From Opitutaceae bacterium (GTDB lineage: Bacteria > Verrucomicrobiota > Verrucomicrobiia > Opitutales > Opitutaceae): a DNA stretch of 64,000 nt. The first letter of the stretch is position 1. The number at the start of each line of letters is the position of its first letter. The translations under genes and the position numbers were made by a program. The DNA is taken from the NCBI GenBank assembly GCA_035765635.1, contig DASTWZ010000039.1:46829-110828 (forward strand), given 5' to 3'. A model generated the notes under the pieces. That model did not search any database. It saw nothing but the letters and a program-made list of their open reading frames with translations, and was not told the DNA's origin. Positions 32,321-49,227 of this stretch are shown here, in pieces.

Positions 32321-33310
32321 ATGAAACGTATCCTGATTCTCATTACGGCTCTCGCCGCCGCCGCGTCAGCCTTCGCGAAAGATGTCGAGCTGCTCAATGT
32401 CTCGTACGATCCGACGCGCGAACTCTACGTCGATTACAACGCGGCCTTCGTGAAACACTGGAAGGAAAAGACGGGCGAAACCGTGGTGATCAAACAGTCC
32501 CACGGCGGCTCCGGCAAACAGGCTCGTTCCGTCATCGACGGTCTCGACGCCGATGTCGTGACGTTGGCCCTCGCGGCCGATGTCGACGCGCTCTCCACCC
32601 ACGGGAAACTGCTTCCCGCCGATTGGCAAAAACGTCTTCCGCAGAATAGCGCTCCGTACACGTCGACCATCGTGTTCCTGGTGCGCAAAGGAAATCCGAA
32701 GGCGGTCAAGGACTGGGATGATCTGGCGAAGCCGGGCATTTCCATCGTCACGCCGAATCCGAAGACTTCCGGCGGCGCGCGTTGGAACTATCTCGCGGCC
32801 TGGGGCTACGCGCTGCGCAAGTACGGCAGCGACGAGAAGGCTCAGGAGTTCCTCGCGAAGATTTTCAAGAATGTGCCAGTACTCGACTCGGGCGCGCGCG
32901 GAGCGACCACGACTTTCGTGCAGCGTGAAATCGGCGACGTGCTGATCAGTTGGGAAAACGAAGCGTTTCTCGCCTTGAAGGAATTCGGCGCCGACAAATT
33001 CGAAATCGTTGTTCCGTCCATCAGCATTCTGGCCGAGCCGACCGTCGCGTGGGTCGACAAGGTCGTGAAGAAGAAACACACCGAAGCGATCGCGAAGGAA
33101 TATTTGGAGTATCTCTACTCGGACGAAGCTCAGGAAATCGCTGGGCGTAACTTCTATCGCCCGCGCACTCCGGCCATCGCCGAGAAATACGCCCAAACCT
33201 TCCCGAAGATCGAACTCTTCACCATCGACGATGTGTTCGGTGGCTGGACGAAAGCGCAGAAGACCCATTTCGCCGACGGCGGAATCTTCGATAAAATCTA
33301 CGCCAAGTAA
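32321..33310 (+). CDS. sbp: sulfate/thiosulfate ABC transporter substrate-binding protein
   Basis: [20 protein letters not shown]...[27 protein letters not shown] is typical of Sbp/CysP. Confidence 0.92.
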
Positions 33311-33408
33311 GCGCATCTGAAGTTGCATCATAGGGGAGGAGCGCTCGCCAAAACGGGCGCTCCTCGGATGCAAACGAACCAAGCCTTCAACTCGCAGCTC
33401 CTTTCCTC

Positions 33409-34278
33409 ATGACCACTGTTTCTTCTCGATTTGAAACCGTAGCTCGCGTGCTGCCGAACAGCGGTCCGGCGCCGGCGGAAGTTTTTGGCGAACGCATCAG
33501 CGAACTCTACGCCCTCTCGCAAAAATCGAATTACGTCTTTGGTTCACCGCTCGGGCCATTTTACGCGGAGGGGCGGGCGTTTCATTTGCCGCGTTTCGTT
33601 TATTTCGGACCTCAGACCCACGACGCATCGCTCCGGCTGGCATTTCTCACGGGCTTCGATCGCGAAGACCTTAGGCCGGGCTTTGCCCTCGCGGATTTCG
33701 TCGAGGAACTGTCCCGCGATCCGTACCTCGGGCAGGGGCTGAATCTTTCGTTTTTTCCTCTGGTCGACGTGCTTGGTTTCAGCCGCGTCACCGGGGAGCG
33801 CGCCTTGGCCAACGCGAATTGGACCCGTTCGCGCTCGCCCGAAATCGAGTTGTTGGAAAAAGACGCGCGAGTCCGCGGCTACCACGGCTTCGTGCGTATC
33901 GAAACTTCCAATACAGATGACGAGATTTCCTTGCGTCTGCTTTTTGGCCGCCAAGAGGCGCATAAAACGCAAAAAGGAATTAAGAGTGACGGAGTGGTTT
34001 CCGAGGGTAGGGCGAGACCTCAGGGCGAGCCGTCCGACCTCCTGACCTCCGAGGATTTCGCGCCGCATGCGGTGCGTTGGGAAACGACTCAGCCCGGCGA
34101 ACGCATTGGCGACGGGCCATTGACCAGCATGGATAATTTACCCGTCATGCCATTCGAGCTGCGCATTCGTCTGCCAAAGAGCTGGGCAGAGGAAACGCAT
34201 CGCACTGCGATCAGTTCGATCCTCAAACGCTTCATCCTGCGCCAGCGCGCCGTGCAGGCGTTTGCCCAACATCTTTGA
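33409..34278 (+). CDS. M14/succinylglutamate-desuccinylase-like paralog with a degenerate active site (putative pseudo-peptidase)
   Basis: Colinear with the next gene, but GIHGDEPAG is replaced by GFDREDLRPG, NPTGY by VDVLGF, and LHSDD by IETSN. It contains an in-frame repeat insertion. Confidence 0.6.
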   Translation: MTTVSSRFETVARVLPNSGPAPAEVFGERISELYALSQKSNYVFGSPLGPFYAEGRAFHLPRFVYFGPQTHDASLRLAFLTGFDREDLRPGFALADFVEELSRDPYLGQGLNLSFFPLVDVLGFSRVTGERALANANWTRSRSPEIELLEKDARVRGYHGFVRIETSNTDDEISLRLLFGRQEAHKTQKGIKSDGVVSEGRARPQGEPSDLLTSEDFAPHAVRWETTQPGERIGDGPLTSMDNLPVMPFELRIRLPKSWAEETHRTAISSILKRFILRQRAVQAFAQHL

Positions 34279-34339
34279 GGGTGAACGGCATCCGCCGTGC
34301 TTTTGACCAAGTCTTCGAACAGAAATAAATTTTCCCGCC

Positions 34340-35137
34340 ATGGTGCAGATTATTCCTCAGTCTTCGCGCAATCTGCGCGCTTTGTTCGGCCCGCTCTTCG
34401 AGTTGGCGGAGCAATGCCCTGAAGTCATCGGCTCCATGGCGGGAACCTTTTCGTATCAACAAAACCGATACGGCATCTCCCGCTTCGTTTTCGTCGGGCC
34501 GGAAACCGAGGTCCGGCCCATCCGGCTTGGGCTTTTCGCCGGGATCCACGGCGACGAGCCGGCAGGCTGCGAAGCGCTGGTGCGATTGCTCGTCGATCTC
34601 ACCGAAAATCCCGAACGCGCGACCGGCTACGACTTGATCGTGTATCCCGTCTGCAATCCCACCGGCTACGAAGACCGCACGCGCCACAATCGCGCCGGCT
34701 CGGACTTGAATCGCGAGTTCTGGAAAAGTTCGACGCATCCGGAAGTCCGCATTTTGGAAAACGAACTGCGCACGCATAAATTCGACGGTCTGATCACGCT
34801 GCATTCCGACGATACGTCCGAAGGCATTTACGGCTACGCGCATGGTCGGTTGCTCAACGAAGAGTTGCTGCGGCCGGCGCTCCGCGCCTGCGAGGGAATT
34901 TTGCCGCGCGATCCGAGGGCGAACATCGACGGCTTCGTCGCGACCGAAAGCATGCTGTGCGATTGTTTTCCCGGCGTGCTCTCCGCGCCGCCCGAGCAGG
35001 AGCCGAAACCTTTTGATCTGATTTTCGAAACACCCGCGCTCGCCCCTTACGATCATCAAGTTGACGCGACGGTTGTCGCGCTGAAGTCAGTGCTTTCTGA
35101 ATATAGACGCTTCATCGCGTTCGGTCAGAACCTGTAA
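34340..35137 (+). CDS. M14-family zinc carboxypeptidase / AstE-AspA-like deacylase
   Basis: GIHGDEPAG (HxxE), VCNPTGY, RHNRAGSDLNREF, LHSDD, FETPA. Confidence 0.75.
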   Translation: MVQIIPQSSRNLRALFGPLFELAEQCPEVIGSMAGTFSYQQNRYGISRFVFVGPETEVRPIRLGLFAGIHGDEPAGCEALVRLLVDLTENPERATGYDLIVYPVCNPTGYEDRTRHNRAGSDLNREFWKSSTHPEVRILENELRTHKFDGLITLHSDDTSEGIYGYAHGRLLNEELLRPALRACEGILPRDPRANIDGFVATESMLCDCFPGVLSAPPEQEPKPFDLIFETPALAPYDHQVDATVVALKSVLSEYRRFIAFGQNL

Positions 35138-35147
35138 TTTTCAACGG

Positions 35148-35975
35148 ATGTCTATCGCGCGTTCACAGCGGTCGGTCTTGCCGGGCTTTGGCCTCTCGCT
35201 CGGCTTCACCCTTTTTTATCTTTGCCTCATCGTGCTCGTGCCGCTCGCGGCCACGTTCGCGAAGACGTTTGGAATGACCTGGCACGATTTCGTCACGGCC
35301 GTCGCGTCACCTCGCGTGCTCGCTTCGTATCGCATCAGCTTTCTCGCCTCACTGGCCGCCGCGGCGGTCAACATGATCTTCGGGCTCATCGTCGCCTGGG
35401 TGCTCGTCCGTTATCGTTTTCCGGGCAAGCGCATCGTCGACGCGCTCGTCGATTTGCCTTTCGCGCTGCCCACCGCGGTCGCGGGCATCGCGCTCACGCA
35501 GATCTACGCGAAGAGCGGATGGGTGGGCCAGTATCTCGAACCGCTCGGAATCAAGGCCGCGTATTCCGAAATCGGCGTTTTCATCGCGCTCACGTTCATC
35601 GGCCTGCCATTTGTCGTTCGCACCTTGCAGCCGGTGCTGGAGGAACTCGAACCCGAGATCGAAGAAGCCTCGGCCACGCTCGGCGCTTCGCGCTGGCAAA
35701 CCATCACGCGCGTCATCCTGCCGGAACTTTTTCCCGCGCTGCTCACCGGCTTTGCCTTGTCCTTCGCCCGCGCCCTGGGCGAATACGGCTCCGTCGTTTT
35801 CATTTCCGGAAACATGCCGATGCGCACGGAAATCGTTCCGTTGCTCATCATCACCAAGCTCGAGCAATACGACTATCGCGGCGCCACTGCGATCGCCGTC
35901 GTGATGCTGGTGGCCTCCTTCATTTTGCTGCTCTGCATCAATCTGCTGCAGAAGTGGAGTCGCAAGCACGTGTAG
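35148..35975 (+). CDS. cysT: sulfate ABC transporter permease CysT
   Basis: Typical CysT N-terminus [23 protein letters not shown] and an EAA-loop region. Confidence 0.92.
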
Positions 35976-36048
35976 CAGATCCCCGCGCCCGACCCGCATC
36001 CGCACCTGTCATTCTTCATTCATCACTCATCCTTCTTCCTTTGTCTTA

Positions 36049-36933
36049 ATGTCTGCCGTCGCCTCCTCTCTTCACGCTCGCCGCTCTGTCGTGGAGCATG
36101 CCGCTCCTCGGGCGACGCATGATCCGCATTGGGCCCGGTGGTTGCTGCTGGGCCTGGCGTTCGCGTTTCTCGCGTTGTTTCTGTTCCTGCCGCTGATCGC
36201 GGTATTCACGGAAGCACTACGCAAGGGACTCGCGGTTTATTTTGCGGCGTTCAAGGACCCGGATGCGATTTCGGCCATCAAGCTCACGCTGACCGCCGCG
36301 GGAATTTCCGTGCCGCTCAATTTGGTGTTTGGTGTCGCGGCGTCCTGGGCGATCACGAAATTTTCGTTTCCCGGCAAGAGTCTGCTCATGACGCTGATCG
36401 ATTTGCCGTTCGCCGTTTCACCGGTGATCTCGGGCTTGATCTACGTGCTCGTGTTCGGCGCGCAGGGCTGGTTCGGACCGTGGCTCAACGATCACGATAT
36501 AAAAATCATCTTCGCCGTTCCAGGCATCGTCCTGGCCACGACGTTTGTCACGTTTCCATTCGTCGCGCGCGAATTGATCCCGCTCATGCAGGCGCAGGGA
36601 ACCGACGAGGAATACGCCGCGATCAGCCTCGGCGCGAACGGCTGGCAAACGTTCTGGCGCGTCACCGTGCCGAATATCCGCTGGGGACTTTTCTACGGCG
36701 TCATTCTCTGCAACGCCCGCGCGATGGGCGAATTCGGCGCCGTCTCCGTCGTGAGCGGACACATCCGCGGCGAAACAAACACGATGCCGCTGCACATCGA
36801 AATTTTATACAACGAATACAACTTCGTGGCGGCCTTCGCCGTCGCGTCCCTCCTCGCGCTGCTCGCCATCGTCACGCTCGTCCTGAAGAGCATCATCGAG
36901 TGGAAGCACCAGGAGTCCCGAGCGGCGGAGTAG
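36049..36933 (+). CDS. cysW: sulfate ABC transporter permease CysW
   Basis: CysW-like sequence with [28 protein letters not shown]. Confidence 0.92.
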
Positions 36934-36979
36934 TCCGCCGCCTCTTCAATGGCTACCCTTACAAAAGGATGTTCAACTC

Positions 36980-38035
36980 ATGAGTGTCTCGGCCCAAAAC
37001 ATCTCCAAGACGTTCGCGCGCTACACCGCGCTCGATCATGTCTCGCTCGACGTGCCGAGTGGAAAACTGATCGCGCTGCTCGGCCCTTCCGGCTCCGGCA
37101 AGACCACGCTGCTCCGCATCATCGCTGGACTCGAACACGCCGACAGCGGCAGCGGACAAATCGCGTTCGACGATCAGGACGTGACGAACAAACCGGCCGG
37201 CGAGCGCGGCGTCGGCTTTGTGTTTCAGCACTACGCCCTTTTTCGCCACATGACCGTCGCCGAAAACATCGCGTTCGGGCTGCGCGTCCGCCCGAGCAAG
37301 ACTCGTCCGTCCAACGCAAAAATCCGCGAGCGGGTGGGGGAGCTGCTGAAATTGGTCCAGCTCGATGGCCTGCACAGCCGTTATCCGAATCAGCTTTCTG
37401 GCGGACAACGCCAGCGCGTCGCTCTCGCCCGCGCCCTCGCGGTGGAGCCGAGGGTTCTTCTGCTCGACGAACCGTTCGGCGCGCTCGATGCGAAGGTGCG
37501 CAAGGAATTGCGCCGCTGGCTGCGCCAGTTTCACGAAGAGGTTCACCTCACCACGCTCTTCGTCACGCACGATCAGGAAGAAGCTCTCGAGATCGCCGAC
37601 GAGGTCGTGATCATGAATCAGGCGCGTATTGAACAAGTGGGTACACCGCAGGATGTCTACGACCGGCCCGCGAGTCCCTTTGTCTACAAATTTCTGGGCA
37701 ACGTGAACGTCCTTCGCGACGTCGACACTTGGTCGAACACCGGCCCGATCCACGACAACGGCCGGCTCGCTTCGGATGGCTTGCTCTACGTTCGCCCGCA
37801 CGAACTCGCCGTGGTTGAAGATCGCCGCGGCGCGACCGGCGTTCCGGCCGTCTTGCGTTTCCTGCATGGCGCGGGCTCGCAGGTTCAGGCCACCTTCGAA
37901 CTCATCTCGACCCACGAGCACGTGGACGTGGAACTTTCGCGCAGCGAGTTCGCCGCGCTTAACCTGAAAATCAATTCACGCGTGCTGCTCCGCCTGCGCG
38001 ACACGCAGGTTTTCCAGCAGGACTACGCCATCTGA
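36980..38035 (+). CDS. cysA: sulfate ABC transporter ATP-binding protein CysA
   Basis: Walker [10 protein letters not shown], signature [15 protein letters not shown], Walker B LLLDEPF, and a C-terminal TOBE-like domain. Confidence 0.93.
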
Positions 38036-38164
38036 ATCAGCGAGTTGCGCTGAGCCGTTCGCTCGAAAAAAGCGCTTGAGCACAAAACCCCGACTACACT
38101 TATCTGGAAACTCAGGAAAGTTCCGATGGTCACTTTCTAAACCTCAAAGCTAAACAACATCCAT

Positions 38165-39154
38165 ATGGGCAAGATCTATAACGATATCACCGAAACGATC
38201 GGAAACACGCCTCTCGTGCGTTTGAATCGCACGGCCGCGGCGCACGGCGCGCAGGCCGACATTCTGCTGAAGCTCGAATTTTTTAACCCTCTCTCGAGCG
38301 TGAAGGATCGCATCGGTAACGCGATGATCGACGACGCGCTGAAGAGCGGAAAGATCAACAAGGACACCGTTCTGATCGAGCCGACGTCGGGCAACACGGG
38401 TATCGCGCTCGCCTTCGTGGCCGCGGCCAAAGGTCTCAAGCTCATCCTCACGATGCCGGAGACGATGTCGCTCGAACGCCGCAAGCTGCTCAAGATTCTC
38501 GGCGCGCGTCTCGTCCTCACCGAAGGACCGAAGGGCATGAAGGGCGCGATCGCGAAAGCGGAAGAGCTGCAATCGAAAATCCCGAACAGCATTATTCTCC
38601 AGCAATTCGCCAATCCCGCGAATCCCGCAGTGCACCGTCGCACAACGGCCGAAGAAATCTGGCGCGATACGGATGGCAAGGTCGACATCGTCGTCTCGGG
38701 CATCGGCACCGGCGGCACGATCACCGGTATTGGCGAGGTGTTGAAGCCGCGCAAACCGAGCCTGCACGTCGTGGCGCTCGAGCCCGATTCGTCGCCCGTG
38801 CTCTCGGGCGGTCAGCCTGGTCCGCACAAGTTGCAGGGCCTCGGCGCCGGTTTCATCCCGCCCATCCTCAACACGAAGGCCTACGACGAAGTGATTCGCG
38901 TCAAGGAAGCCGACTCGGCTCCGATCTCGAAACAGGTCAATCAGCTCGACGGCATTCCGATCGGCATCTCCGCCGGCGCCGCGGTCTGGGCCGCGATCGA
39001 GTTGTCCAAGCGTCCGGAAAACAAGGGCAAGACGATTGTCGCGATCATCCCGTCCTCCAGCGAACGCTATCTCTCCACCTGGCTCTTTGCCGACGTCAGC
39101 CCGGAAAGCGATTCGATCGACGACCTGCTCGGCGCTGCCGCAGCCGCCAAGTAA
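38165..39154 (+). CDS. cysK: cysteine synthase A (O-acetylserine sulfhydrylase)
   Basis: [18 protein letters not shown] (PLP lysine), [20 protein letters not shown]. Confidence 0.93.
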
Positions 39155-39168
39155 ACAATTCAAAAAAC

Positions 39169-39369
39169 CGTAGCCGCAAAGAGGCGCAAAAAAACGCAAA
39201 GAGGATTTTGGGTTCGTCCACGTCGCTCGCAACATCTGGTCCACAACCCGGTTGGGGTATCGGTTTGTAACTCCAAACCAAAATACCAGACCGCTTTCAG
39301 GTGTCGGATGGCTGAGTCGGCCCGAACAAGTAATCATCCTCTTTGCGACTCTTGAGCCTCTTTGCGGCC
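39169..39369. repeat. ~200-bp MITE-like element with ~45-bp terminal inverted repeats (GTAGCCGCAAAGAGGCGCAAAAAAACGCAAAGAGGATTTTGGGT)
   Basis: Left end as given. Right end ATCCTCTTTGCGACTCTTGAGCCTCTTTGCGGCC. Conserved central CGGTTGGGGTATCGGTTTGTAACTCCAAACC. A second copy is at 52628-52825. Confidence 0.8.
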
Positions 39370-39544: not shown

Positions 39545-41281
39545 ATGGAATCCGGTCGGTTCACTCACACCGTATTAGAAACTGACGTCCTCGTCATCGG
39601 CGGCGGCACCGCAGGCTGCGTCGCCGCGATCAAAGCGAAGGAGGCTCTGCCCAACGGCTCGGTGCTGTTGCTGGAAAAAGCCAACGTCAAACGCAGCGGC
39701 GCCATCGCGCTCGGCATGGACGGGGTGAACAACGCCGTGATCCCGGGCCACGCCACGCCCGAGCAGTACGTGAAGGAAATCACGATGGCCAATGACGGCA
39801 TCGTGAACCAGGAAGCCGTCCTGGCCTACGCGCGGCAGAGCTTCGGCATGATCCAGGAGCTCGAAAGCTGGGGCGTGAAATTTCAGAAAACGCCCGGTGG
39901 GGACTACGACATGAAGAAGGTCCACCACAAGGGCAGCTACGTCCTGCCAATGCCGGAGGGTTACGACATCAAGAAAATCCTAACGCGCGTCATACGCCGC
40001 GTTGGCGTGCGCACGGAAAACCGCTTCATGGCGACGCGGGTCCTGCTCGACGAGGGCAGGGCGGCGGGGGCGCTGGGCTTCAATGTCCGCACCGGCGAGT
40101 TCGTCATCATCCGCGCCAAGGCCGTGATCCTTTCGTGTGGCTCAGCCGGGAGGTTAGGTTTGCCCGCCTCGGGCTATCTGATGGGCACTTACGAGAATCC
40201 GGCGAACGCCGGCGACGGTTTCGCCATGGCGTTTCACGCCGGCGCCGAGATGAGCAATCTCGAATGCTTCCAGGTCAATCCGCTGCTCAAGGACTACAAC
40301 GGGCCGGCCTGCGCTTATGTCAGCGGGCCCTACGGCGGCTACACTGTGAACGCGAAGGGCAATCGTTTCATGCTCTCGGATTACTGGAGCGGCCAGATGA
40401 TGCTCGAATTCTACCGCGAGCTGAACGGACCGAACGGACCCGTTTACCTGAAGATGAATCACCTCGCGCCCGAAACGGTGACGGAGATCGAACAGATCCT
40501 CCACACTACGGAGCGTCCGAGTCGCGGACGCTTCCATGCCGGCCGGGGAATTCATTATGGAGAACAACCGATCGAAATGGCGGTGTCCGAGATCGGCTTG
40601 TGCTCCGGCCATAGCGCCTCGGGGGTGCGGGTGAGTCACCGCGCCGAAACGACCGTGCCGGGACTCTACGCCGCGGGCGACATGGCCTCCGTGCCGCACG
40701 GCTACATGCTCGGCGCATTCACCTATGGAAAGATCGCCGCGGGCAGCGCGACCGAATATATCCGTTCCGTGGATACGCCGACGATCGATGAGGGGCAGGT
40801 CGAGCGGGAACGCCTTCGCGTGCACGGTCCGCTCTCGAGACCCGACGGCATTCCGCCGCATCAATTCGAGTACAAGTTGCGTCGCCAGGTGAACGACTAC
40901 CTCCAGCCGCCGAAGACGGCTTTCAGGCTGGAGCGTGGCCTCGCCTACTTCGATCGCGCCAGCGAGGAACTCGAACAACTCGGCGCGCGCGAACCGCACG
41001 ACCTGATGCGAGCCATGGAATGCCACTTCATCCGCGATTGCGCCGAGATGGCCGCGCGCTCCTCGCTCTTCCGCACAGAGAGCCGATGGGGTCTCTATCA
41101 CTACCGTCTCGATTTCTCCGAGATGAACAACGCCGAGTGGTTCGCTCACTCGATCCTCCGCCGCAATCCCGGCGGCAAAGTCGAAACCTACAAACGTCCC
41201 ATCGAGCCCTACGTCGTCCCGCTCACCGAAGAGGAGCTGCGCGGCTACCACCAACTGCGAATCGCGAAAAGCGAAGGCTGA
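39545..41281 (+). CDS. AprA-like FAD flavoprotein (adenylylsulfate reductase alpha / fumarate reductase flavoprotein superfamily)
   Basis: DVLVIGGGTAGCVAA, EKANVKRSGAIALGMDGVNN (compare AprA RSGAVAQGLSAIN as recalled), and C-terminal ESRWGLYHYRLDF. Confidence 0.75.
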   Translation: MESGRFTHTVLETDVLVIGGGTAGCVAAIKAKEALPNGSVLLLEKANVKRSGAIALGMDGVNNAVIPGHATPEQYVKEITMANDGIVNQEAVLAYARQSFGMIQELESWGVKFQKTPGGDYDMKKVHHKGSYVLPMPEGYDIKKILTRVIRRVGVRTENRFMATRVLLDEGRAAGALGFNVRTGEFVIIRAKAVILSCGSAGRLGLPASGYLMGTYENPANAGDGFAMAFHAGAEMSNLECFQVNPLLKDYNGPACAYVSGPYGGYTVNAKGNRFMLSDYWSGQMMLEFYRELNGPNGPVYLKMNHLAPETVTEIEQILHTTERPSRGRFHAGRGIHYGEQPIEMAVSEIGLCSGHSASGVRVSHRAETTVPGLYAAGDMASVPHGYMLGAFTYGKIAAGSATEYIRSVDTPTIDEGQVERERLRVHGPLSRPDGIPPHQFEYKLRRQVNDYLQPPKTAFRLERGLAYFDRASEELEQLGAREPHDLMRAMECHFIRDCAEMAARSSLFRTESRWGLYHYRLDFSEMNNAEWFAHSILRRNPGGKVETYKRPIEPYVVPLTEEELRGYHQLRIAKSEG

Positions 41282-41420
41282 AAAGGAGAAGGCTGAAAAG
41301 GAGAAGGCTGAAGGAATGAAGGCTGAAGGCTGAAAGCAGCATGAAGAATGACAATTCCCGCATGACCAACTTTCCGAGGGTAGGGCGAGACCTCAGGGCG
41401 AGCCGCAACGCCGAGTCCGC
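41271..41420. repeat. GAAGGCT heptamer array followed by a TTTCCGAGGGTAGGGCGAGACCTCAGGGCGAGCCG unit
   Basis: GCGAAGGCTGAAAAGGAGAAGGCTGAAAAGGAGAAGGCTGAAGGAATGAAGGCTGAAGGCTGAA. It sits between the aprA-like and ferredoxin genes. Confidence 0.85.
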
Positions 41421-41518
41421 ATCTGACTCCGTCCACCAACCTATCTCTCCGAATGAGCCGCGCGCTCAAAGCCTCTCAACTCAAAATAAAACAAACTTCG
41501 TCTCACTCATTTCCTCAC

Positions 41519-41833
41519 ATGTCCGCCACTCTCCCACAAAAAGTCGCCGGCAAATTAAAATTTAGCTCGGAAACCGAGGCCGCCGCAGCCGCGCGCGTCA
41601 CGCCGAATCGGCAAACCGTAAAAGCCTTCGACGTCCCCGTCGTCGTCGATGAAGCCAAATGCATCACCGGCTGCCACGTCTGCGTGGAGTCCTGCCCGGT
41701 CGACTGTCTCGCGATCAATCCCGCGACGACCAAATCCCACATGAAGTTCGACGACTGCTGGTACTGCCTCGCCTGCGAGGTGGACTGCCCGACGAACGCT
41801 ATAACCGTGAAAATGCCCTTCCTGATCCGCTGA
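41519..41833 (+). CDS. AprB-like 2x[4Fe-4S] ferredoxin (short form; alternative start 41453)
   Basis: Two Cys clusters, CITGCHVCVESCP and CWYCLACEVDCPTNAITV. The second resembles the AprB CWECYSCVKMCPQGAIDV as recalled. Confidence 0.7.
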   Translation: MSATLPQKVAGKLKFSSETEAAAAARVTPNRQTVKAFDVPVVVDEAKCITGCHVCVESCPVDCLAINPATTKSHMKFDDCWYCLACEVDCPTNAITVKMPFLIR

Positions 41834-41836
41834 ACT

Positions 41837-42790
41837 ATGTCTGTCGAAACCGAACAATTTACCGCCCTGGCCGAGAGCCTGCGCAGCCCGGACGTCAATC
41901 AACGCCGCCTGGCTCTGGCCGAACTCGAGGAAAATCTTCGTGTAGTGCCGGCGGAACTACTCATCCCTTCGCTGCGCGATGAAGATGCGGCGGTGCGGCG
42001 CCTGGCCGCTCAACTGCTCGAAGAGATCGGCGACGTCGCGGCCATTCCCGCGTTGATCCATGTCACCGCCGATTCCGCGGCCGATGTCGCTTCCGTCGCC
42101 GCAAGCGCGCTCCGGGAGTTTCGCACGCCGCACGCGGTGCCGCTGCTGATCAGTGGAATCGATCACCCTAAGCCGGAGGCCCGTGTCGCCGCTCTCATCG
42201 CCTTGCGTGAGCACAAAGCCGATGGCGCCATGGCGACCTTGATTCGGGCGGTGAGTGACTCAGTTCCGGAGGTTAGGCGCGAAGCGATCATCACGTTGAC
42301 CCATCTTCGTCATGCCGGGTCGCTGCCGGTCCTGCGCGAGTCGTTGAACGATGTTTCCGCACCCGTGCGACGAATCGCGATCGGCGCGGTCGCTGTCTTC
42401 AACGACGCCGCGTCAATCCCAGACCTCGCGCGCTCCCTCGGAGACGACGATTGGCAGGTGCGTCGGGAGGCGGCGATTGCCCTGGGGAAGTTCTCTTCTA
42501 ACGAGGCAATTGAGTCACTTATCAGAGCGTTGAACGACGCCTATTGGCAGGTGGCCAAGGAAGCCTTGGCCAGCCTGGGCAAACTTCACGCGCCCGTCGC
42601 GGTCAGGCTCGCCCCCTTCGCAAAACACGAAATCGCCGACGTGCGCCTCGCCGCGGCCAGCGCTCTGGGCGAAACCGGAGAACGCAGCGCCCGCGATCCA
42701 TTGACCGAACTGCTGAACGACCCCGACACCGGCGTCCAGAAAGCCGCGCGCCGAGCGCTCGAGCAACTCGCCGCCAAGACTGCGAGCTAA
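41837..42790 (+). CDS. HEAT/PBS-lyase-like repeat protein
   Basis: About eight tandem ~31-aa repeats of the type D.D..VRR.AA.ALG..G...A...L. It starts 3 nt after the ferredoxin stop codon. Confidence 0.8.
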   Translation: MSVETEQFTALAESLRSPDVNQRRLALAELEENLRVVPAELLIPSLRDEDAAVRRLAAQLLEEIGDVAAIPALIHVTADSAADVASVAASALREFRTPHAVPLLISGIDHPKPEARVAALIALREHKADGAMATLIRAVSDSVPEVRREAIITLTHLRHAGSLPVLRESLNDVSAPVRRIAIGAVAVFNDAASIPDLARSLGDDDWQVRREAAIALGKFSSNEAIESLIRALNDAYWQVAKEALASLGKLHAPVAVRLAPFAKHEIADVRLAAASALGETGERSARDPLTELLNDPDTGVQKAARRALEQLAAKTAS

Positions 42791-43008
42791 ATGACGACTG
42801 TGATTTTCTTAGCCGCGAAGAGACGCAGCGCGGCGGAGTCGCAACCGCGTTTCCAAACGCGGTCGCGAGGTATTTGGAGCGCAGGCGTCTCGCCTGCATT
42901 GGGCGACCATGCAGGCGGGACGCCCGCGCTCCACGAACCGGCGCAGCCGCATTCGAAAATGCGGCTGCAGCAACACCGCGCGCTGGAGCTGCTGGCACTT
43001 TCAATCTC

Positions 43009-44418
43009 ATGATTCCCTCGACCAAAATTCCAAAAACACTCGCTTGGCTCGGCGTCTTTCAATTCGTGTTTCAGGCTTCGGCTGAAACCATCCGCGTGGC
43101 CATTGGCACGCAGGACACGACGATCAACTGCGCGGCGGGCGGACCCGTTGTTCGCGAGTTGAAGCTGCTGGAAAAGTACCTCCCGCACGACGGGAAGTAT
43201 CGAGATGTTGAATACAATATCATTTGGGAAAACCAACCCACCGGCGCTCAGCTCAACAGCAAGTACCTCGCGAACCAGCTCGATATCGTCCAGATGGCGG
43301 ACTTCCCGTCGATCGTCGGCGCCACCGCGTTCGAGGCGGCGAACAACGGCGTGCATTCGATCTACATCGCGTCGCTCTCCGGCGGAATCAGCGGGGCGGG
43401 CAATGCGATTCTCGTGCCGAACAACTCTCGCGTTCAGTCGCTCTCGGAGTTGAAGGGCAAACGGATTTCCGTGCCGTTCGCGTCGACGGCGCACGCGATG
43501 CTGATTCGCGCGATTCAGGATCTCGGTTGGGATCCGAACTCGGACGTGACCATCATCTCGCAGACGCCCGAGGTCGGCGGGAGTGCGTTGAAAGCAGGGC
43601 AGATCGACGCTCACGCGAACTTCGTGCCCTTTGGCGAACTTTTCCCTTTTCGAGGAATCGCTCGCAAGATCTATGACGGCAGCTTGACGGGAGTGACCAC
43701 CACGCACGGCGTGCAAGTGCGTTCGGATTATGTGGCGAAATATCCCGAGATCGTCGTGGCCTACCTGAGGGCGATGCTCGAGGCGAGCAAGCTGCTGGAG
43801 GAAAAACCGGAGGAACTTTCCGAGAAGCTGGAAAAATGGACGGGCGTCGAAGCCGAAGTGTACTACGCGTTTCATGGCCCGCAGGGGATTCAGACGCGCG
43901 ATTACAGTTTGAAGCCCGAGTTCGTCACAGCGATCCGCCGCGCGCAGGAGGCGTTGAAAGTGCTCAAGAAAGTCCCCCGCGAGGTGAGCATCGATCTGTA
44001 TGTGAAAGACGAATACATCCGCGAGGCCGCGAAGCAGTCCGGCCTGGATTACGAGGCGCAGTTGAAGAACTATGCTCCGCTGCCATTTCGGGGGAACGCG
44101 CTCGACACTTCGGCGCCGGTGACGGACGCGAAACGTGCCGGTCAGATCTGGGTGAAGGGCGAGGAGAAGGTCCGGCTTTACAGCACGGCGGAAGCGGCGC
44201 TGCGCGAGGTGAAGAAGTTGAAGGCCGACCGCAAGACGCTCCGGGTGATCTTCGTGCACGATCGCGTCAGCGGCCTGAAGCTTTTCGCCGATCGCGCGTG
44301 GTACGTCGTGAACCGCGGCGAGGCATCCGCCTTTTTGTTGAAAGCCGATGCAGACAAGTGGGCGAAAGACCATGACGGCGCCGCCGAGAGCTACGAAGAT
44401 GTTTTGGCGAAAATCTAA
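43009..44418 (+). CDS. NMT1/SsuA-type ABC transporter substrate-binding protein with a ~115-aa C-terminal extra domain
   Basis: Signal peptide MIPSTKIPKTLAWLGVFQFVFQASA. SsuA/NrtA-like core (LKGKRISVPFASTAHAML..). The ORF part upstream of 43009 overlaps the HEAT gene and repeats. Confidence 0.8.
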   Translation: MIPSTKIPKTLAWLGVFQFVFQASAETIRVAIGTQDTTINCAAGGPVVRELKLLEKYLPHDGKYRDVEYNIIWENQPTGAQLNSKYLANQLDIVQMADFPSIVGATAFEAANNGVHSIYIASLSGGISGAGNAILVPNNSRVQSLSELKGKRISVPFASTAHAMLIRAIQDLGWDPNSDVTIISQTPEVGGSALKAGQIDAHANFVPFGELFPFRGIARKIYDGSLTGVTTTHGVQVRSDYVAKYPEIVVAYLRAMLEASKLLEEKPEELSEKLEKWTGVEAEVYYAFHGPQGIQTRDYSLKPEFVTAIRRAQEALKVLKKVPREVSIDLYVKDEYIREAAKQSGLDYEAQLKNYAPLPFRGNALDTSAPVTDAKRAGQIWVKGEEKVRLYSTAEAALREVKKLKADRKTLRVIFVHDRVSGLKLFADRAWYVVNRGEASAFLLKADADKWAKDHDGAAESYEDVLAKI

Positions 44419-44428
44419 AGACGGTCGC

Positions 44429-44832
44429 GACGCCGACGCTCGGCCGATACCGAACGTTCGGCCAATCCCCAAACGCTCTACCGCCGTAGTGCGCCTTTCC
44501 AAGGCGCAGGAGGCTCTGGGAGCGCTGGCATCTTGCCGGCCCCAATTGGGCTGCCGCGAAGCGGCGGACTCGATGGCGACGACGCATTTTCACCGACCGA
44601 GTCCGTCCGCGCTTGTGGCGCGGACTGTAGAAAGATGCCGGCGAGGACGCCAGCGCTCCCAGTGGCCGACATCGGCGAGACGCCGACGCTCGGCTAATAC
44701 CGAACGTTCGGCCAACCCCCAAATGCTTTACCGCCGTAGTGCGCCTTTCCAAGGCGCAGAAGGCTCTGGGAGCGCTGGCATCTTGCCGGCACCTATCGGG
44801 CTGCCGCGAAGCGGCGGACTCGATGGCGACGA
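44429..44832. repeat. two ~154-nt direct repeats (44429-44582 and 44679-44832, about 93% identical) separated by a CGAGTCCGTCCGCGC..GCTCCCAG unit
   Basis: Both copies read GACGCCGACGCTCGGC.(A/T)ATACCGAACGTTCGGCCAA.CCCCAAA.GCT.TACCGCCGTAGTGCGCCTTTCCAAGGCGCAG.AGGCTCTGGGAGCGCTGGCATCTTGCCGGC...GGGCTGCCGCGAAGCGGCGGACTCGATGGCGACGA. Confidence 0.9.
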
Positions 44833-44861
44833 TCGGCCATATTACAACCACCTTCACAGCC

Positions 44862-45716
44862 ATGAGCACCGCAATCACCACCCTTGACGACCAACCCGCT
44901 GTATCGAATCCGGCACTACAGACTTCGCGTTGGCGAAAAGTCGCGGCGCGCTGGTTCGTTCGCCTTCTCTCGATCGCGCTCTGCTTCGTTTTGTGGGAGG
45001 CGGCATCCCGCGGCAAATGGACCGTCCTCGGCGCTCGTTTCGAAAACGTGCCCGCACCGTCGCAAGTTTTCGACGCCGCGAAAGAGCTGGCTCGTTCCCC
45101 GAAATTGACCGGCCATTTGAAGGCAAGCCTGATGCGCATTTTTGCAGGCTTCTCGCTGGCGGCGGTTCTCGCCGTGGCCAGCGGAATGCTGATCGGGAGA
45201 TTTCGCTGGGCCGAAGATGGATTGATGCCGCCCTTCGAAATCCTGCGGCCAATTCCCGCAGTCGCCTGGATCCCTCTCGCGATTCTCCTCTGGCCGACGC
45301 CGGAAAGCAGCATGATCTTCATCACCTTCATCGGAGCGTTTTTCCCGATTTTGCTGAACACCGTGCACGGCGTGGAGGGCATCGACCGTCGTCTCGTTCA
45401 AGCGTCGCTTGTTCTCGGCACGGGGCGCGTGGCGTTGTTTCGCGAGGTGATTTTGCCGGGCTCGCTTCCCGCGATCGTGACGGGACTGACGATCGGCATG
45501 GGCACCGCCTGGTTCTCGCTCATCACCGCCGAGATGGTCTCGGGACAGTACGGCATCGGCTATTTCACGTGGGAGGCGTACACGCTGCAGAACTATCCCG
45601 ACATCGTTCTCGGCATGATCTTGATCGGCGTGCTCGGCATGCTGAGCAGCGGACTCATCCGCATCGTCGGGCTGCGGTTCATGCCTTGGTTCAAATTCGG
45701 AGGAAATTCCACATGA
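44862..45716 (+). CDS. ABC transporter permease, SsuC/TauC family
   Basis: Six TM segments with an EAA-like loop. The start is chosen after the repeat, because the 44739 ORF start lies inside repeat copy 2. Confidence 0.85.
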   Translation: MSTAITTLDDQPAVSNPALQTSRWRKVAARWFVRLLSIALCFVLWEAASRGKWTVLGARFENVPAPSQVFDAAKELARSPKLTGHLKASLMRIFAGFSLAAVLAVASGMLIGRFRWAEDGLMPPFEILRPIPAVAWIPLAILLWPTPESSMIFITFIGAFFPILLNTVHGVEGIDRRLVQASLVLGTGRVALFREVILPGSLPAIVTGLTIGMGTAWFSLITAEMVSGQYGIGYFTWEAYTLQNYPDIVLGMILIGVLGMLSSGLIRIVGLRFMPWFKFGGNST

Positions 45717-46576
45717 GTGATTTGTTTAAACCAGATGAAGCCGCGGGAATTCGCCTGAAACAGGCGAGCCTGTCCTTCGGCGAAGGCGCGAATCGGCTGG
45801 AGGCGCTGCATCAGCTCGAGCTGACGATCCCTGCCGGAGAATTTGTCAGTGTCCTCGGTCCCTCGGGCTGCGGAAAATCGACCTTGATCGGCGCGATTGC
45901 GGGCTTGGCGAAGTTGAGCGCTGGCGAACTTTTGGTGAACGGTTCAGCAGTGCGCGCGCCAGGGGCAGAGCGAGGCGTGGTGTTTCAGCACCACACGCTG
46001 TTTCCCTGGAAAACCGTTTTTCAGAACGTCGAATTCGGCCTGAGAAATCGCGGCGTGAAAAAGCCAGAGCGAACCGCGTCCGTTCGCGAGATGCTCGCGC
46101 ATGTCGGCCTCGAGGAATTCACGCACCATTATCCAGCGCAGCTTTCCGGCGGCATGCAGCAGCGCGTGAATCTCGCGCGCGCCTTGGTGAATCGCCCGAA
46201 AGTGCTGCTGATGGATGAGCCCTTCGCGGCGCTCGACGCCCAAACGCGCCTCAACATGCAGGAACTCCTGCTGGCATTGTGGAGCGAGCGACGCATGACC
46301 GTTTTGTTTGTCACGCACGATGTCGATGAAGCGCTTTTCCTGGCGGATCGCGTCGTGGTGCTGAGCCGGCGTCCGGCGGAGATCCGCTCGGAAGTCGTGG
46401 TCGAGTTGCCTCGTCCGCGCACGACGTCGGTGTTGACGGAACCGCGCTTCAGTTCGCTGAAGCGTCACTGCCTCGAACTCCTGCGCAACGAGAGCCGGCG
46501 TTCGATCCGGCCGCCTCCAGGCGATGCCCAAGCCTCCCCCGAAGAACTCGTCGAAGCGGTGACGGAGCAAGCGTAG
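45713..46576 (+). CDS. ABC transporter ATP-binding protein, SsuB/TauB family
   Basis: Walker A GPSGCGKST, signature LSGGMQQRVNLARAL, Walker B LLMDEPF. ATGA start/stop overlap with the permease. Confidence 0.9.
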   Translation: MSDLFKPDEAAGIRLKQASLSFGEGANRLEALHQLELTIPAGEFVSVLGPSGCGKSTLIGAIAGLAKLSAGELLVNGSAVRAPGAERGVVFQHHTLFPWKTVFQNVEFGLRNRGVKKPERTASVREMLAHVGLEEFTHHYPAQLSGGMQQRVNLARALVNRPKVLLMDEPFAALDAQTRLNMQELLLALWSERRMTVLFVTHDVDEALFLADRVVVLSRRPAEIRSEVVVELPRPRTTSVLTEPRFSSLKRHCLELLRNESRRSIRPPPGDAQASPEELVEAVTEQA

Positions 46577-46816: not shown

Positions 46817-47398
46817 ATGAAGCTCTCCAAACGCGGCGAATATGGTCTACGTGCCCTGATCGATATCGGTCTGGCCCACGAGCTTGGCCGTGAGCTGTTG
46901 CAGCTGAATGAGTTGGCGACAAACGAGAAGATCCCGGTCAAATTTCTAGAGCAGATCCTGATCGACCTGAAGCAGGGTGGTTTTCTCGATAGTGTGCGTG
47001 GCAAGTACGGCGGCTACCGGCTCGGAAAGCCCGCCAAAGAGGTCGTGATTGGGCAGATCGTCAGATACCTCGATGGACCGCTGGCTCCGATCTGTTGCGT
47101 GAGCCAAACCGCATACGAGCGCTGTACCTGTCCGGACGAAGCTCACTGCGGCTTGCGCATGCTCATGCTCGATGTGCGCAACGCCATCGCGAACATTTTG
47201 GACCGCTACAGTCTCGCCGATGTAGTGGAAGTGACACTACGCAAGATGCGCCGCGACAACGTGAACTTGCCATTCAGCGTGAATCCGCGCGAGCGGATCG
47301 CCGCCGCGGCGAAAGCGGCGAAGGGGAAAAAAGCGATCGCGTTGACCACGCCCGGCGAAAACGGTCTTGGAGAATTTCTTTATCGCGAGGGAATATGA
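46817..47398 (+). CDS. Rrf2-family transcriptional regulator (CymR/IscR-like) with a Cys cluster and C-terminal extension
   Basis: MKLSKRGEYGLRALIDIG wHTH region, Cys-rich segment PICCVSQTAYERCTCPDEAHCG, and an ATGA overlap with the next gene. Confidence 0.85.
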   Translation: MKLSKRGEYGLRALIDIGLAHELGRELLQLNELATNEKIPVKFLEQILIDLKQGGFLDSVRGKYGGYRLGKPAKEVVIGQIVRYLDGPLAPICCVSQTAYERCTCPDEAHCGLRMLMLDVRNAIANILDRYSLADVVEVTLRKMRRDNVNLPFSVNPRERIAAAAKAAKGKKAIALTTPGENGLGEFLYREGI

Positions 47399-48366
47399 GA
47401 GCCGCGTTCCGTCTTGGTTTCAGCCTCGCTGGGCTCGCTCTCGCCTTCGCGCATCTCGGAGCGGCGAAGACCACGCTGCGCGTCGGCTACTTTCCCAACA
47501 TCACGCACGCGCAGCCGATCATCGCCAAGGAACTCGCTGCGGAAGGAAAGGACTGGTTCGAGGAGCGGCTCGGCCCGGATGTGGAGCTGCAATGGTTCGT
47601 CTACAACGCCGGCCCGAGCGCGACCGAGGCGATTTTTGCGCGGTCGATCGACCTGACCTACATCGGCCCCAGCCCGGCGCTGAACGCCTACATTCGTTCG
47701 CGCGGCGACGAGATCCGCATCGTATCTGGCTCGGCGCGCGGCGGCGCTGCGCTGTTGGTGCGACCTGGCTCCGGCATCGAAAAACCCGCGGATTTTCGCG
47801 CGAAGAAGCTGGCCACCCCTCAGCTGGGCAACACTCAGGACGTGGCCGCGCGCGCCTGGTTGAAACAACAGGGCTTCAAAATCACGCAGCTGGGCGGCGA
47901 CGTTTATGTTTTGCCGACAGCGAATCCCGATCAGCTCGCGCTCTTTCAGCGCGGAAGTCTCGACGCGGTCTGGACGGTCGAGCCATGGGTTTCGCGCATC
48001 GAGCGGGAGGCCGGCGGGAAAATTTTTCTCGAGCAGCGTGATGTCGTAACGACCATCCTCGTCGCGCGCACGGAGTTTCAGGAAGAGCAGGGACCGCTCG
48101 TTCAGCGCTTCGTGAAGGCGCATCGCGAGTTGACCGCGTGGATTCAGGCCCATCCGGACGAAGCGCAGCAGCTCCTGCAAAAAGGCCTAACCGCTGAAGT
48201 GAGACGCGAGATCAAACTCGAACTCGTCGCATCGGCCTGGAAACGACTGACCTTTACCTCCGACATCAACCTACAATCCATCGAAGGCCTCGTGGCGGAC
48301 GCACGCAGCGTCGGCTTCATCCGCGGGCACGTCGATCTCTCCCGACTCCTCAGTCTTCCCCAGTGA
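47395..48366 (+). CDS. aliphatic-sulfonate-type ABC transporter substrate-binding protein (SsuA-like)
   Basis: Signal peptide, then LRVGYFPNITHAQPIIAKE and LATPQLGNTQDVAARAWL. Confidence 0.85.
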   Translation: MRAAFRLGFSLAGLALAFAHLGAAKTTLRVGYFPNITHAQPIIAKELAAEGKDWFEERLGPDVELQWFVYNAGPSATEAIFARSIDLTYIGPSPALNAYIRSRGDEIRIVSGSARGGAALLVRPGSGIEKPADFRAKKLATPQLGNTQDVAARAWLKQQGFKITQLGGDVYVLPTANPDQLALFQRGSLDAVWTVEPWVSRIEREAGGKIFLEQRDVVTTILVARTEFQEEQGPLVQRFVKAHRELTAWIQAHPDEAQQLLQKGLTAEVRREIKLELVASAWKRLTFTSDINLQSIEGLVADARSVGFIRGHVDLSRLLSLPQ

Positions 48367-49172
48367 CCGTACAAACGGAATTGGTTAATGAAACGCCGTC
48401 GAAGCTCTCGGTCGGCGCGATCTCTAAACGTTTCCGCACGAAGCACCGCGAAGTGCTCGCGCTGGATCGCGTGTCGCTCGACATCGCGGAAGGCGAGTTC
48501 GTCTGCCTCGTCGGACCCAGCGGCTGCGGCAAGAGCACCCTGTTGAATATCATCGCGGGGCTCGATGTGGCCGACGAGGGCACGCTGCTTTGCGATGGGC
48601 GCGCCGTGAATGGACCGGGTCGCGACCGGATGGTGATGTTTCAAGAGCACGCCTTGTTTCCTTGGTTGAGCGTGACGGAAAACGTGATGTTCGGCCTGCG
48701 TTTGAAACCTGGGCTGAAAAACCACGAGCGGAAGGAAGTGGCGAAGTTTTACCTCAAGCTCGTGGGTCTGGAAAAATTCGCGGAGGCCAATGTGCATGAG
48801 CTTTCGGGTGGCATGAAGCAACGCGTCGCCCTGGCGCGCGCGCTCGCGCCGAATCCGCGGGTGCTGTTGATGGATGAGCCGTTCGCCGCGCTTGATGCGC
48901 TCACCCGCGAGCAGCTCTACGGCGACATTCAGCGCATCTGGCGGGACAGAAAAAAGACGATCATCTTCGTCACGCACAATGTCCGCGAAGCGGTCTGCCT
49001 CGGCGATCGCGTGGTGCTTTTCTCGCCGAACCCGGGGCGCATCTGCGAACAGTTCCGGATCGATCTGCCGCGTCCGCGCGACATCAACAGCGTGACGCTC
49101 GCGCAGTATTCGACCCAGATCACCAAAGCGCTCAAAGGCCACATGAACAAGGACGGCGAGGTGGGCGAATGA
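48363..49172 (+). CDS. ABC transporter ATP-binding protein, SsuB-like
   Basis: [37 protein letters not shown] overlap with the upstream gene. Confidence 0.9.
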   Translation: MTVQTELVNETPSKLSVGAISKRFRTKHREVLALDRVSLDIAEGEFVCLVGPSGCGKSTLLNIIAGLDVADEGTLLCDGRAVNGPGRDRMVMFQEHALFPWLSVTENVMFGLRLKPGLKNHERKEVAKFYLKLVGLEKFAEANVHELSGGMKQRVALARALAPNPRVLLMDEPFAALDALTREQLYGDIQRIWRDRKKTIIFVTHNVREAVCLGDRVVLFSPNPGRICEQFRIDLPRPRDINSVTLAQYSTQITKALKGHMNKDGEVGE

Positions 49173-49227
49173 TTCCGAACGCGATGATTTCGGTGTATTC
49201 GCTTTTTGGAGACGGGAGGACCTTGCG

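Follow-up and report, generated by a model that had tools for sequence, protein, structure and literature searches.

A 64,000-nucleotide (nt) stretch of the genome of an Opitutaceae bacterium (Verrucomicrobiota; assembly GCA_035765635.1, contig DASTWZ010000039.1, positions 46,829 to 110,828), hereafter referred to as the window, contains a sulfur cluster in which six adjacent genes encode a flavoprotein, a ferredoxin, a HEAT-repeat protein, and the three components of an ATP-binding cassette (ABC) importer. The first three genes, referred to as the trio, and all of their neighbors lie on the plus strand. The module comprises the following genes (aa, amino acids):

39545-41281, plus strand: flavin adenine dinucleotide (FAD) flavoprotein of 578 aa, family NF006131/PRK08275, domains PF00890 and PF02910; putative catalytic subunit.
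41519-41833, plus strand: 2x[4Fe-4S] ferredoxin of 104 aa; ATG at 41519 in an open reading frame (ORF) that is open from 41453; predicted electron-transfer subunit.
41837-42790, plus strand: HEAT/PBS-lyase-type repeat protein of 317 aa (HEAT_2, E=6e-44; HEAT_PBS, E=8e-22).
43009-44418, plus strand: periplasmic substrate-binding protein (SBP) of 469 aa with a Sec signal peptide and an SsuA/TauA-like fold; the true start is the ATG at 43009.
44823-45716, plus strand: ABC permease of the NitT/TauT family, starting at 44739, 44823, or 44865.
45713-46576, plus strand: ABC ATPase, the ATG of which overlaps the permease stop codon (ATGA).

An earlier sequence-only reading of the window had described the trio as an AprA-like flavoprotein, an AprB-like ferredoxin, and a HEAT-repeat protein embedded in an assimilatory sulfur cluster. 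Its observations are confirmed: the flavoprotein lies where it was described and contains DVLVIGGGTAGCVAA and EKANVKRSGAIALGMDGVNN, the small ferredoxin has two cysteine clusters and ends without the long tail of AprB, the HEAT protein starts 3 nt after the ferredoxin stop codon, and the neighbors include cysK, sulfate and sulfonate-type ABC transporters, and an Rrf2 regulator, a sulfur context that recurs elsewhere. That reading delimited the trio correctly and overlooked the downstream SsuA-like ABC transporter of the same unit; the SBP, the permease, and the ATPase are the dedicated importer of the module.

In Pfam, the flavoprotein matches only the FAD_binding_2 (PF00890) and Succ_DH_flav_C (PF02910) domains. 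It belongs to NF006131 (PRK08275), with a score of 973.5 bits against a cut-off of 587 and an alignment of residues 8-576 with positions 6-575 of the 577 in the model, and it also matches the N-terminal two-thirds of the 898-aa model NF010374/PRK13800. By contrast, it fails the models for aprA, scoring 188 against a cut-off of 641.75 (TIGR02061) and 283 against 557 (NF005331). The resemblance to AprA noticed in the sequence-only reading nevertheless holds, because the closest characterized relatives are the alpha subunits of adenosine-5′-phosphosulfate (APS) and 3′-phosphoadenosine-5′-phosphosulfate (PAPS) reductases: the best match in the PDB is the PAPS reductase alpha subunit of M. thermolithotrophicus (8A8O_A, E=4e-67, residues 12-569 against 7-567), followed by Archaeoglobus fulgidus AprA (1JNR/2FJA, E=1e-51), whereas fumarate reductase (Frd) and succinate dehydrogenase (Sdh) structures are matched at E values of approximately 1e-21. 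In a neighbor-joining tree with 200 bootstraps, the kind of phylogeny that the earlier reading had proposed, the core family is monophyletic (100%), as are a broader PRK08275-like clade (100%) and the clade of Apr and PAPS reductases (100%); the latter two clades are sisters with moderate support (66.5%), and Escherichia coli FrdA and NadB are placed outside their grouping. These comparisons identify the flavoprotein, at the level of sequence, as a diverged sister lineage of APS/PAPS reductase alpha subunits. An AlphaFold2 model built from a shallow alignment had a mean predicted local distance difference test score (pLDDT) of 59.7 and a predicted template modeling score of 0.67. A fold search with this low-confidence model placed PAPS reductases and then APS reductases on top, at template modeling scores of approximately 0.55 that do not separate them from Frd/Sdh, which is weakly suggestive of the same kinship.

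The flavoprotein family is tight. The nearest homologues, of 75-92% identity, are found in Verrucomicrobiota such as Nibricoccus and Chthoniobacterales, core members from different phyla share 60-70% identity, and a search of 1.84 billion representatives returned one cluster at 70%, one at 60% (a 925-aa fusion protein from Streptomyces), and then only sequences at or below 42%. The relatives of approximately 42% identity are paired with a 66-aa ferredoxin and occur without a HEAT protein and without an SsuA transporter; the association with the latter two is therefore specific to the core family. The cluster names of the distant relatives were uninformative, and the "LTGMEF" candidate relative P0181 had no close relative in the plasmid collection. 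The family is catalogued in databases, where it is uncharacterized and uniformly misnamed "fumarate reductase/SDH flavoprotein subunit." Within the searchable library, the literature contained no functional study dealing with the family, with PRK08275/PRK13800, or with the gene set, and the sulfur-omics papers examined did not mention the flavoprotein family.

The ferredoxin contains eight cysteines, in CITGCHVCVESCP and CWYCLACEVDCP, and matches Pfam Fer4/Fer4_7 (Fer4 dicluster). It scores 23.5 against a cut-off of 135.65 with the aprB model TIGR02060. Because it ends 13 residues after the second and last CP motif, it has neither the C-terminal domain nor the tail of the AprB type. Its relatives are 77-103 aa long, and the gene follows that of the flavoprotein in nearly all related loci.

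The ATG of the HEAT gene, 3 nt past the TGA of the ferredoxin gene, has counterparts in the relatives at a spacing of 1-3 nt. The window protein matches positions 619-872 of the fusion model NF010374/PRK13800, i.e., its C-terminal third, and natural flavoprotein::HEAT fusions occur in Actinobacteria, including Streptomyces (P0122, 925 aa) and Tsukamurella (893 aa). Its conserved positions are restricted to the canonical D-x4-VR-x2-A-x3-L repeat residues and two tryptophans, and the conservation analysis revealed no metal-binding or catalytic motif. Since conservation is confined to the repeat and the ferredoxin is tail-less, the HEAT protein probably has a structural part in the enzyme, as a third subunit or as a scaffold, and may substitute for the C-terminal domain and tail of AprB that the ferredoxin lacks.

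The SBP is most similar, among solved structures, to SsuA (3E4R, 2X26, 3UIF) and TauA (6SSY). It is approximately 140 aa longer than these proteins and has a C-terminal extension of approximately 130 aa without a Pfam match; SBPs of the family are typically of this long form (about 440-480 aa).

Species-representative genomes yielded, when scanned, at least 591 loci encoding a relative, of which 80 were fetched for comparison, and synteny was counted over 82 related loci by tblastn and all-against-all ORF clustering. The 82 loci derive from at least six phyla. The fetched loci belong to Verrucomicrobiota, Sorangium and other Polyangia, Phycisphaerales, Beta- and Gammaproteobacteria, and Cyanobacteria, with genera including Burkholderia, Paraburkholderia, Cupriavidus, Ralstonia, Variovorax, Pseudomonas, Acinetobacter, Methylomonas, Nostoc, Leptolyngbya, and Pseudanabaena. 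Several hundred species representatives carry the module, Acinetobacter baumannii and the Burkholderia cepacia complex among them. Plasmid records with a relative come from rhizobia, Methylobacterium, Nonomuraea, Tsukamurella, and Acidithiobacillus caldus (pTcM1), and the unit is found on those of rhizobia, Acidithiobacillus, and Tsukamurella. The survey of the triad that the sequence-only reading had proposed thus finds flavoprotein, ferredoxin, and HEAT protein conserved across the 82 loci, with the HEAT gene present in 79, the SBP and ATPase genes in 71 each, the permease gene in 66, a GntR regulator gene in 62, and a DUF971 gene in 41. For the Burkholderia-type loci that lack the transporter, antisense ORFs interfered with greedy ORF maps. 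In Verrucomicrobiota and Polyangia, the gene order is flavoprotein, ferredoxin, HEAT, SBP, permease, and ATPase, whereas in Beta- and Gammaproteobacteria it is GntR/UTRA, flavoprotein, ferredoxin, SBP, permease, ATPase, HEAT, and DUF971. Annotated records from A. baumannii, Mesorhizobium, A. caldus, and Tsukamurella bear out the module. One verrucomicrobial contig retains the six genes without cysTWA/cysK, and a Nibricoccus metagenome-assembled genome (MAG) reproduces the whole arrangement of the window. Taken together, the module is a conserved, horizontally mobile six-gene unit, the enzyme core of which is supported by natural fusion.

In the Nibricoccus MAG (L003, 13061-14200), a Sulfotransfer_3 sulfotransferase gene lies directly after the HEAT gene, at the position of the SBP gene in the window, and a gene for a luciferase-like monooxygenase lies downstream. 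Sulfotransferases are normally PAPS-dependent. On pTcM1 of A. caldus (L085, 10102-14035), genes for an FdxA ferredoxin and for a 1153-aa protein carrying a pyridine-nucleotide-disulfide oxidoreductase domain come after the trio; their products may constitute an electron-input chain linked to NAD(P)H.

To compare substrate sites, the sequences of A. fulgidus AprA and of the M. thermolithotrophicus PAPS reductase (MtPAPSR) were rebuilt from printed alignments, and the AprA substrate residues were mapped onto the family. The FAD-proximal Asn/His pair is retained, N62 and H356 of the window protein corresponding to N74 and H398 of Apr, and it is conserved both in the family and in the Apr clade. 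In AprA, this pair stabilizes a flavin-N5 sulfite adduct. The remainder of the APS site has been replaced: both substrate arginines are lost (R265 to L247, R317 to M285), W234 corresponds to Y216, Y95 to E78, E141 to lysine, Q145 to valine, and V273/G274 to alanine and cysteine (G274 to C256). This pattern is common to every core family member, whereas MtPAPSR-type sequences retain R265, R317, W234, and Y95. Three cysteines (C241, C256, and C353) are invariant in 86 family sequences and not present in the Apr clade, and 223 of the 578 positions are at least 97% conserved in the same set. The catalytic residues of fumarate reductase fare no better, as the positions aligned with the covalent-FAD histidine, H232, E245, R287, and R390 of E. 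coli FrdA are occupied by conserved G, N, P, S, and S, respectively; the equivalent of FrdA H355 is possibly window H356, given an alignment slip of six residues. The family is therefore not a fumarate reductase, and its binding residues set it apart from APS/PAPS reductases as well. By its sequence, the flavoprotein is an Apr-derived enzyme with a rebuilt pocket, and, since the nucleotide-binding residues are replaced and three invariant cysteines gained, it is predicted to use neither APS nor PAPS.

Another sulfur-assimilation gene occurs within 10 kb of the module in 27 of the 82 loci. These genes comprise sbp/cysTW, cysK, TauD-like (8/82), luciferase-like monooxygenase (8/82), and a trio of encapsulin-like, SufS-like, and CysE-like genes. 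The last set, found within a few kilobases in ten loci (L024, L026, L030, L032, L057, L061, L063, L067, L080, and L009), combines an encapsulin-like protein, a SufS-like cysteine desulfurase with an N-terminal extension, and a CysE-like acetyltransferase, labels that reflect sequence appearance only. Sulfate-activation genes were sought by tblastn with E. coli CysC, CysD, CysN, CysH, CysI, and CysJ: in 84 family loci and the window, no cysC, cysD, or cysN was found within 10 kb, and no sat was detected through these CysDN/CysC-type queries, no Sat-type (PF01747) query having been run on the loci. Neither QmoABC nor AprM partners were found in the window or the family loci. A canonical cysI-cysH pair lies 8-10 kb from the module in a single locus, a Verrucomicrobiae MAG (L005) with a flavoprotein of 78% identity; the family thus coexists with CysH and is not its replacement. 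In the 64-kb window itself, no cysH, cysDNC, or cysIJ was revealed when the E. coli Cys proteins served as tblastn queries and the other large ORFs were scanned with Pfam, and, in agreement with the sequence-only reading, no sat, qmoABC, or dsr was detected in the Pfam scans of large ORFs, sat being otherwise covered by the CysDN/CysC-type queries only.

The module of the window is flanked by further sulfur genes:

32321-39154, plus strand: sbp, two ORFs without assigned function, cysT, cysW, cysA, and cysK (sulfate uptake and cysteine synthase); context, outside the module.
46817-49995, plus strand: Rrf2/CymR-like regulator and a second SsuA-family ABC system (SBP, ATPase, permease); context.

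An anion porin gene also lies upstream, ahead of sbp, and the cysK assignment rests on TIGR01139 (440 bits). The two genes between sbp and cysT (33409-35137), inside the sulfate-transport operon, encode a 289-aa protein without a Pfam or NCBIfam match and a 265-aa AstE/AspA/M14-like putative zinc hydrolase, and both are kept at the same position in the Nibricoccus MAG. A 395-aa minus-strand ORF at 38150-39337 was rejected as spurious; it is antisense to the plus-strand cysK, has no family match, and is almost certainly an artifact of high GC (guanine-cytosine) content. Antisense ORFs of this kind are frequent across the window and related loci. The gap between the flavoprotein and ferredoxin genes is 237 nt in the window compared with 18-50 nt in close relatives, and it is lengthened in part by a tandem repeat at 41266-41334 that runs across the flavoprotein stop codon and consists of 2.7 copies of the 15-nt unit GAAGGCTGAAAAGGA plus GAAGGCT repeats. 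The 218-nt spacer between the HEAT and SBP genes (42791-43008) is GC-rich and contains an apparent inverted repeat (gcagccgcattcgaaaatgcggctgc); an Rfam scan of it gave a sub-threshold, meaningless match only, and Rfam and promoter/terminator scans of the cluster yielded nothing meaningful. Close to the window's end, a prolyl-tRNA-synthetase-like gene adjoins the gene for a family-B DNA polymerase of 741 aa (60057-62282).

The reading that best accommodates these data is that the module encodes a self-contained organosulfur-scavenging enzyme with its own importer and not an APS/PAPS reductase, to which we assign a probability of roughly 50%. The flavoprotein, the ferredoxin, and the HEAT protein would form one cytoplasmic redox enzyme, and the trio together with the three downstream ABC genes would constitute a self-contained, mobile sulfur-scavenging module. 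We infer that the SsuA/TauA-like SBP, with the permease and ATPase, imports an organosulfur anion of the sulfonate or sulfate-ester type. The flavoprotein would act on the imported compound to yield sulfite, which would pass to sulfite reductase and CysK. The two [4Fe-4S] clusters of the small subunit would relay electrons between the FAD and the ferredoxin/flavodoxin pools of the cell, and the HEAT protein would serve as a structural clamp, perhaps standing in for the missing C-terminal domain and tail of AprB. A more specific proposal, which is possible although doubtful, is that the trio is a new desulfonating or desulfating enzyme that uses Apr-type flavin-N5 chemistry, possibly with the invariant pocket cysteines, for O2-independent cleavage of the imported compound to sulfite; this would be a third route to sulfonate or sulfate-ester sulfur beside the flavin- and 2-oxoglutarate-dependent oxygenases and the lyase and glycyl-radical enzymes. 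The sequence-only reading had listed action on a different sulfur substrate, with the HEAT protein as a novel partner, as one of three options; this is the option favored by the evidence, including the HEAT gene in nearly all loci and the actinobacterial fusions, and the earlier interpretation is thus partly supported.

Several points weigh against an organosulfur-scavenging enzyme. No other recognizable sulfur gene lies within 10 kb of the module in 55 of the 82 loci, and in Proteobacteria and Actinobacteria the local regulator is of the GntR/UTRA type and not a sulfur regulator of the CysB/LysR type. The SBP scores below the cut-off of the SsuA family (108 against 163.5), and its annotation in some records is that of a nitrate-type binding protein. 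That the Asn/His pair is kept is no proof of sulfite-adduct chemistry, the AlphaFold model was poor (pLDDT 59.7), and no experiment or expression data for any family member were found in the literature.

Some of these points would be explained if the function had nothing to do with sulfur, the NitT/TauT-family importer bringing in another anion (for example a nitro compound, a carboxylate, or a nitrogen compound), the flavoenzyme transforming it, and the sulfur neighbors being coincidental. The majority of loci without nearby sulfur genes, the GntR/UTRA regulator, the occasional nitrate-binding annotation of the SBP, and the nearly equal scores of the permease and ATPase against nitrate-type models fit such a function. 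We nevertheless consider it unlikely, because several unrelated sulfur systems recur beside the module in different phyla, SsuA and TauA are the nearest solved structures to the SBP, the closest enzymes are sulfur enzymes, and the module of the window has cysK on one side and a second SsuA system plus a CymR-like regulator on the other.

It is also rather improbable that the trio works as an AsfAB-like electron supply, in which the flavoprotein and ferredoxin would feed a separate oxygenase (SsuD-like, TauD-like, or other) that performs the desulfonation. Such a role matches the literature reading of AsfA/AsfB, the gene architecture is as in asfABC, and the luciferase-like and TauD-like genes of some loci, including the luciferase-like gene of the Nibricoccus locus, are candidate oxygenases. 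However, no oxygenase is among the conserved members of the module, and true AsfA is only 24-28% identical and falls in a separate clade. Furthermore, flavoproteins of this superfamily bind their substrate at the flavin, the window protein has no NAD(P)H domain beside PF00890 and PF02910, and the extreme constraint on the pocket, with its invariant cysteines, fits a catalytic site better than a relay.

An assimilatory APS/PAPS reductase of the MtPAPSR kind, replacing or supplementing CysH, is very unlikely. The end-to-end alignment with a PAPS reductase alpha subunit as the best PDB match and the sulfate uptake genes and cysK adjoining the trio speak for it, as would a PAPS loop in which two of three residues are possibly kept (K120-R121-S122 against K-G-S in the pairwise HMMER alignment), although this loop is gapped, its alignment is unreliable, and the MAFFT alignment differs. 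Opposed to this are the failure of both aprA models, the leucine and methionine that every family member has in place of the two Apr arginines kept in MtPAPSR-type enzymes, the lack of detected sat (by the queries described above), cysC, and cysDN near 84 loci, and the cysI and cysH of the Verrucomicrobiae MAG; a dedicated importer of the organic-anion type would moreover be superfluous in such a role. Pseudomonas, Burkholderia, and Acinetobacter, all hosts of the family, possess CysH, which counts against this role as well. Replacement of a CysH-type reductase had been suggested in the sequence-only reading and is undercut by the residue replacements and the canonical cysI-cysH pair; the substrate-site alignment that it proposed finds only the Asn/His pair retained.

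The other suggestion of that reading, an APS reductase running in reverse to oxidize sulfonate-derived sulfite to APS for detoxification or energy, draws on the kinship to Apr and the adjacent sulfonate transporters but is highly improbable, as the aprA models fail, the APS-binding residues are lost, the queries described above detected no sulfate-activation genes nearby, including a sat to convert APS onward, no AprM/Qmo partner was found, and discarding sulfite is at odds with a sulfur-scavenging context.

If the enzyme does free sulfur from an organosulfur compound, it would close a gap in the picture of how aerobes gain access to organic sulfur, the dominant form of sulfur in soils. It would further account for an Apr-like enzyme in organisms without dissimilatory sulfur metabolism and assign a testable role to a bacterial HEAT-repeat subunit. 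The module is plasmid-mobile, with hosts among major soil, plant-associated, and clinical bacteria, and its study may inform the biochemistry of the analogous AsfAB system.

Among the closest known systems is asfRABC of P. putida S-313, in which a reductase/ferredoxin pair and a binding protein are needed for arylsulfonate desulfonation (PMC4267179, PMC2864759). asfA serves as a soil marker gene, and the biochemical role of AsfA has itself long been unsettled in the literature. Both systems have, in the same order, an FRD-superfamily flavoprotein (PF00890 and PF02910), a 2x[4Fe-4S] ferredoxin, and an SsuA-like SBP. AsfA was defined here by the published asfA marker primers, and genuine asfAB(C) loci were recovered from metagenomes with the reverse primer. 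So defined, AsfA shares the aforementioned 24-28% identity with the window flavoprotein and forms a clade of its own (100% bootstrap) apart from the Apr/PAPSR and PRK08275 clade; given the same layout, the PRK08275-family module is analogous and not orthologous to AsfABC. The window flavoprotein was accordingly rejected as an asfA product: over 83 loci, the forward primer matches at the homologous site with two to three mismatches (LSGIEC against LSGMEF) and the reverse primer has no match. The window HEAT protein had no tblastn match in 80 primer-defined asf loci, and the asf cluster is reported to carry a LysR regulator (PMC4267179), whereas the PRK08275-family modules are accompanied by GntR/UTRA or Rrf2 regulators. 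For AsfA of C. metallidurans CH34 (Rmet_4334), three 50-kb regions of the megaplasmid gave only an FAD protein of 25% identity, and the megaplasmid contained no match to the window flavoprotein at E<=1e-40.

MtPAPSR (8A8O, PRK06854 type) is a dissimilatory-type enzyme recruited to assimilation (Jespersen and Wagner, 2023; PMC10322725). Like the trio, it combines a flavoprotein of approximately 570 aa with a 2x[4Fe-4S] subunit of approximately 100 aa that lacks the tail of dissimilatory AprB, and its sulfur context is assimilatory; no other sequence matches the window flavoprotein better among the solved structures. However, identity is approximately 30%, the window flavoprotein falls under the PRK06854 cut-off, and the PRK06854 family has no HEAT partner. 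This type, the "AprAB-like" complex, has NitT/TauT transporters near some members and sat/cysC adjacent (Neukirchen and Sousa, 2021; PMC8477390); such sat/cysC neighbors were not found at PRK08275-family loci by the queries described above. Of the genes expected to accompany an MtPAPSR-type enzyme (ATP sulfurylase, APS kinase, and PAP phosphatase), the search covered CysC and CysD, which gave no hits in the 84 loci and the window.

A. fulgidus AprAB (1JNR/2FJA) shares with the trio the superfamily, the domain order, the Asn74/His398 pair, and two [4Fe-4S] clusters as the electron entry. It differs in that the flavoproteins are 32% identical, the APS-binding residues are lost from the window protein, both subunits fail the Apr models (TIGR02061 and TIGR02060), the window ferredoxin has neither the β-sheet domain of AprB nor the tail that wraps around AprA, and no Sat/Qmo/AprM context was found around the module. 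The flavoproteins of Frd and Sdh have the same FAD-binding and C-terminal helical domains (PF00890 and PF02910), although they are 22% identical to the window protein, their PDB E values are approximately 45 orders of magnitude weaker than that of PAPS reductase, and the module includes neither a three-cluster subunit of the FrdB/SdhB type nor a membrane anchor. On balance, we rate the system as a variant within the Apr/Asf kind of flavin-iron-sulfur sulfur enzymes, the interest of which stems from its conservation, its breadth, and its unexplained HEAT subunit.

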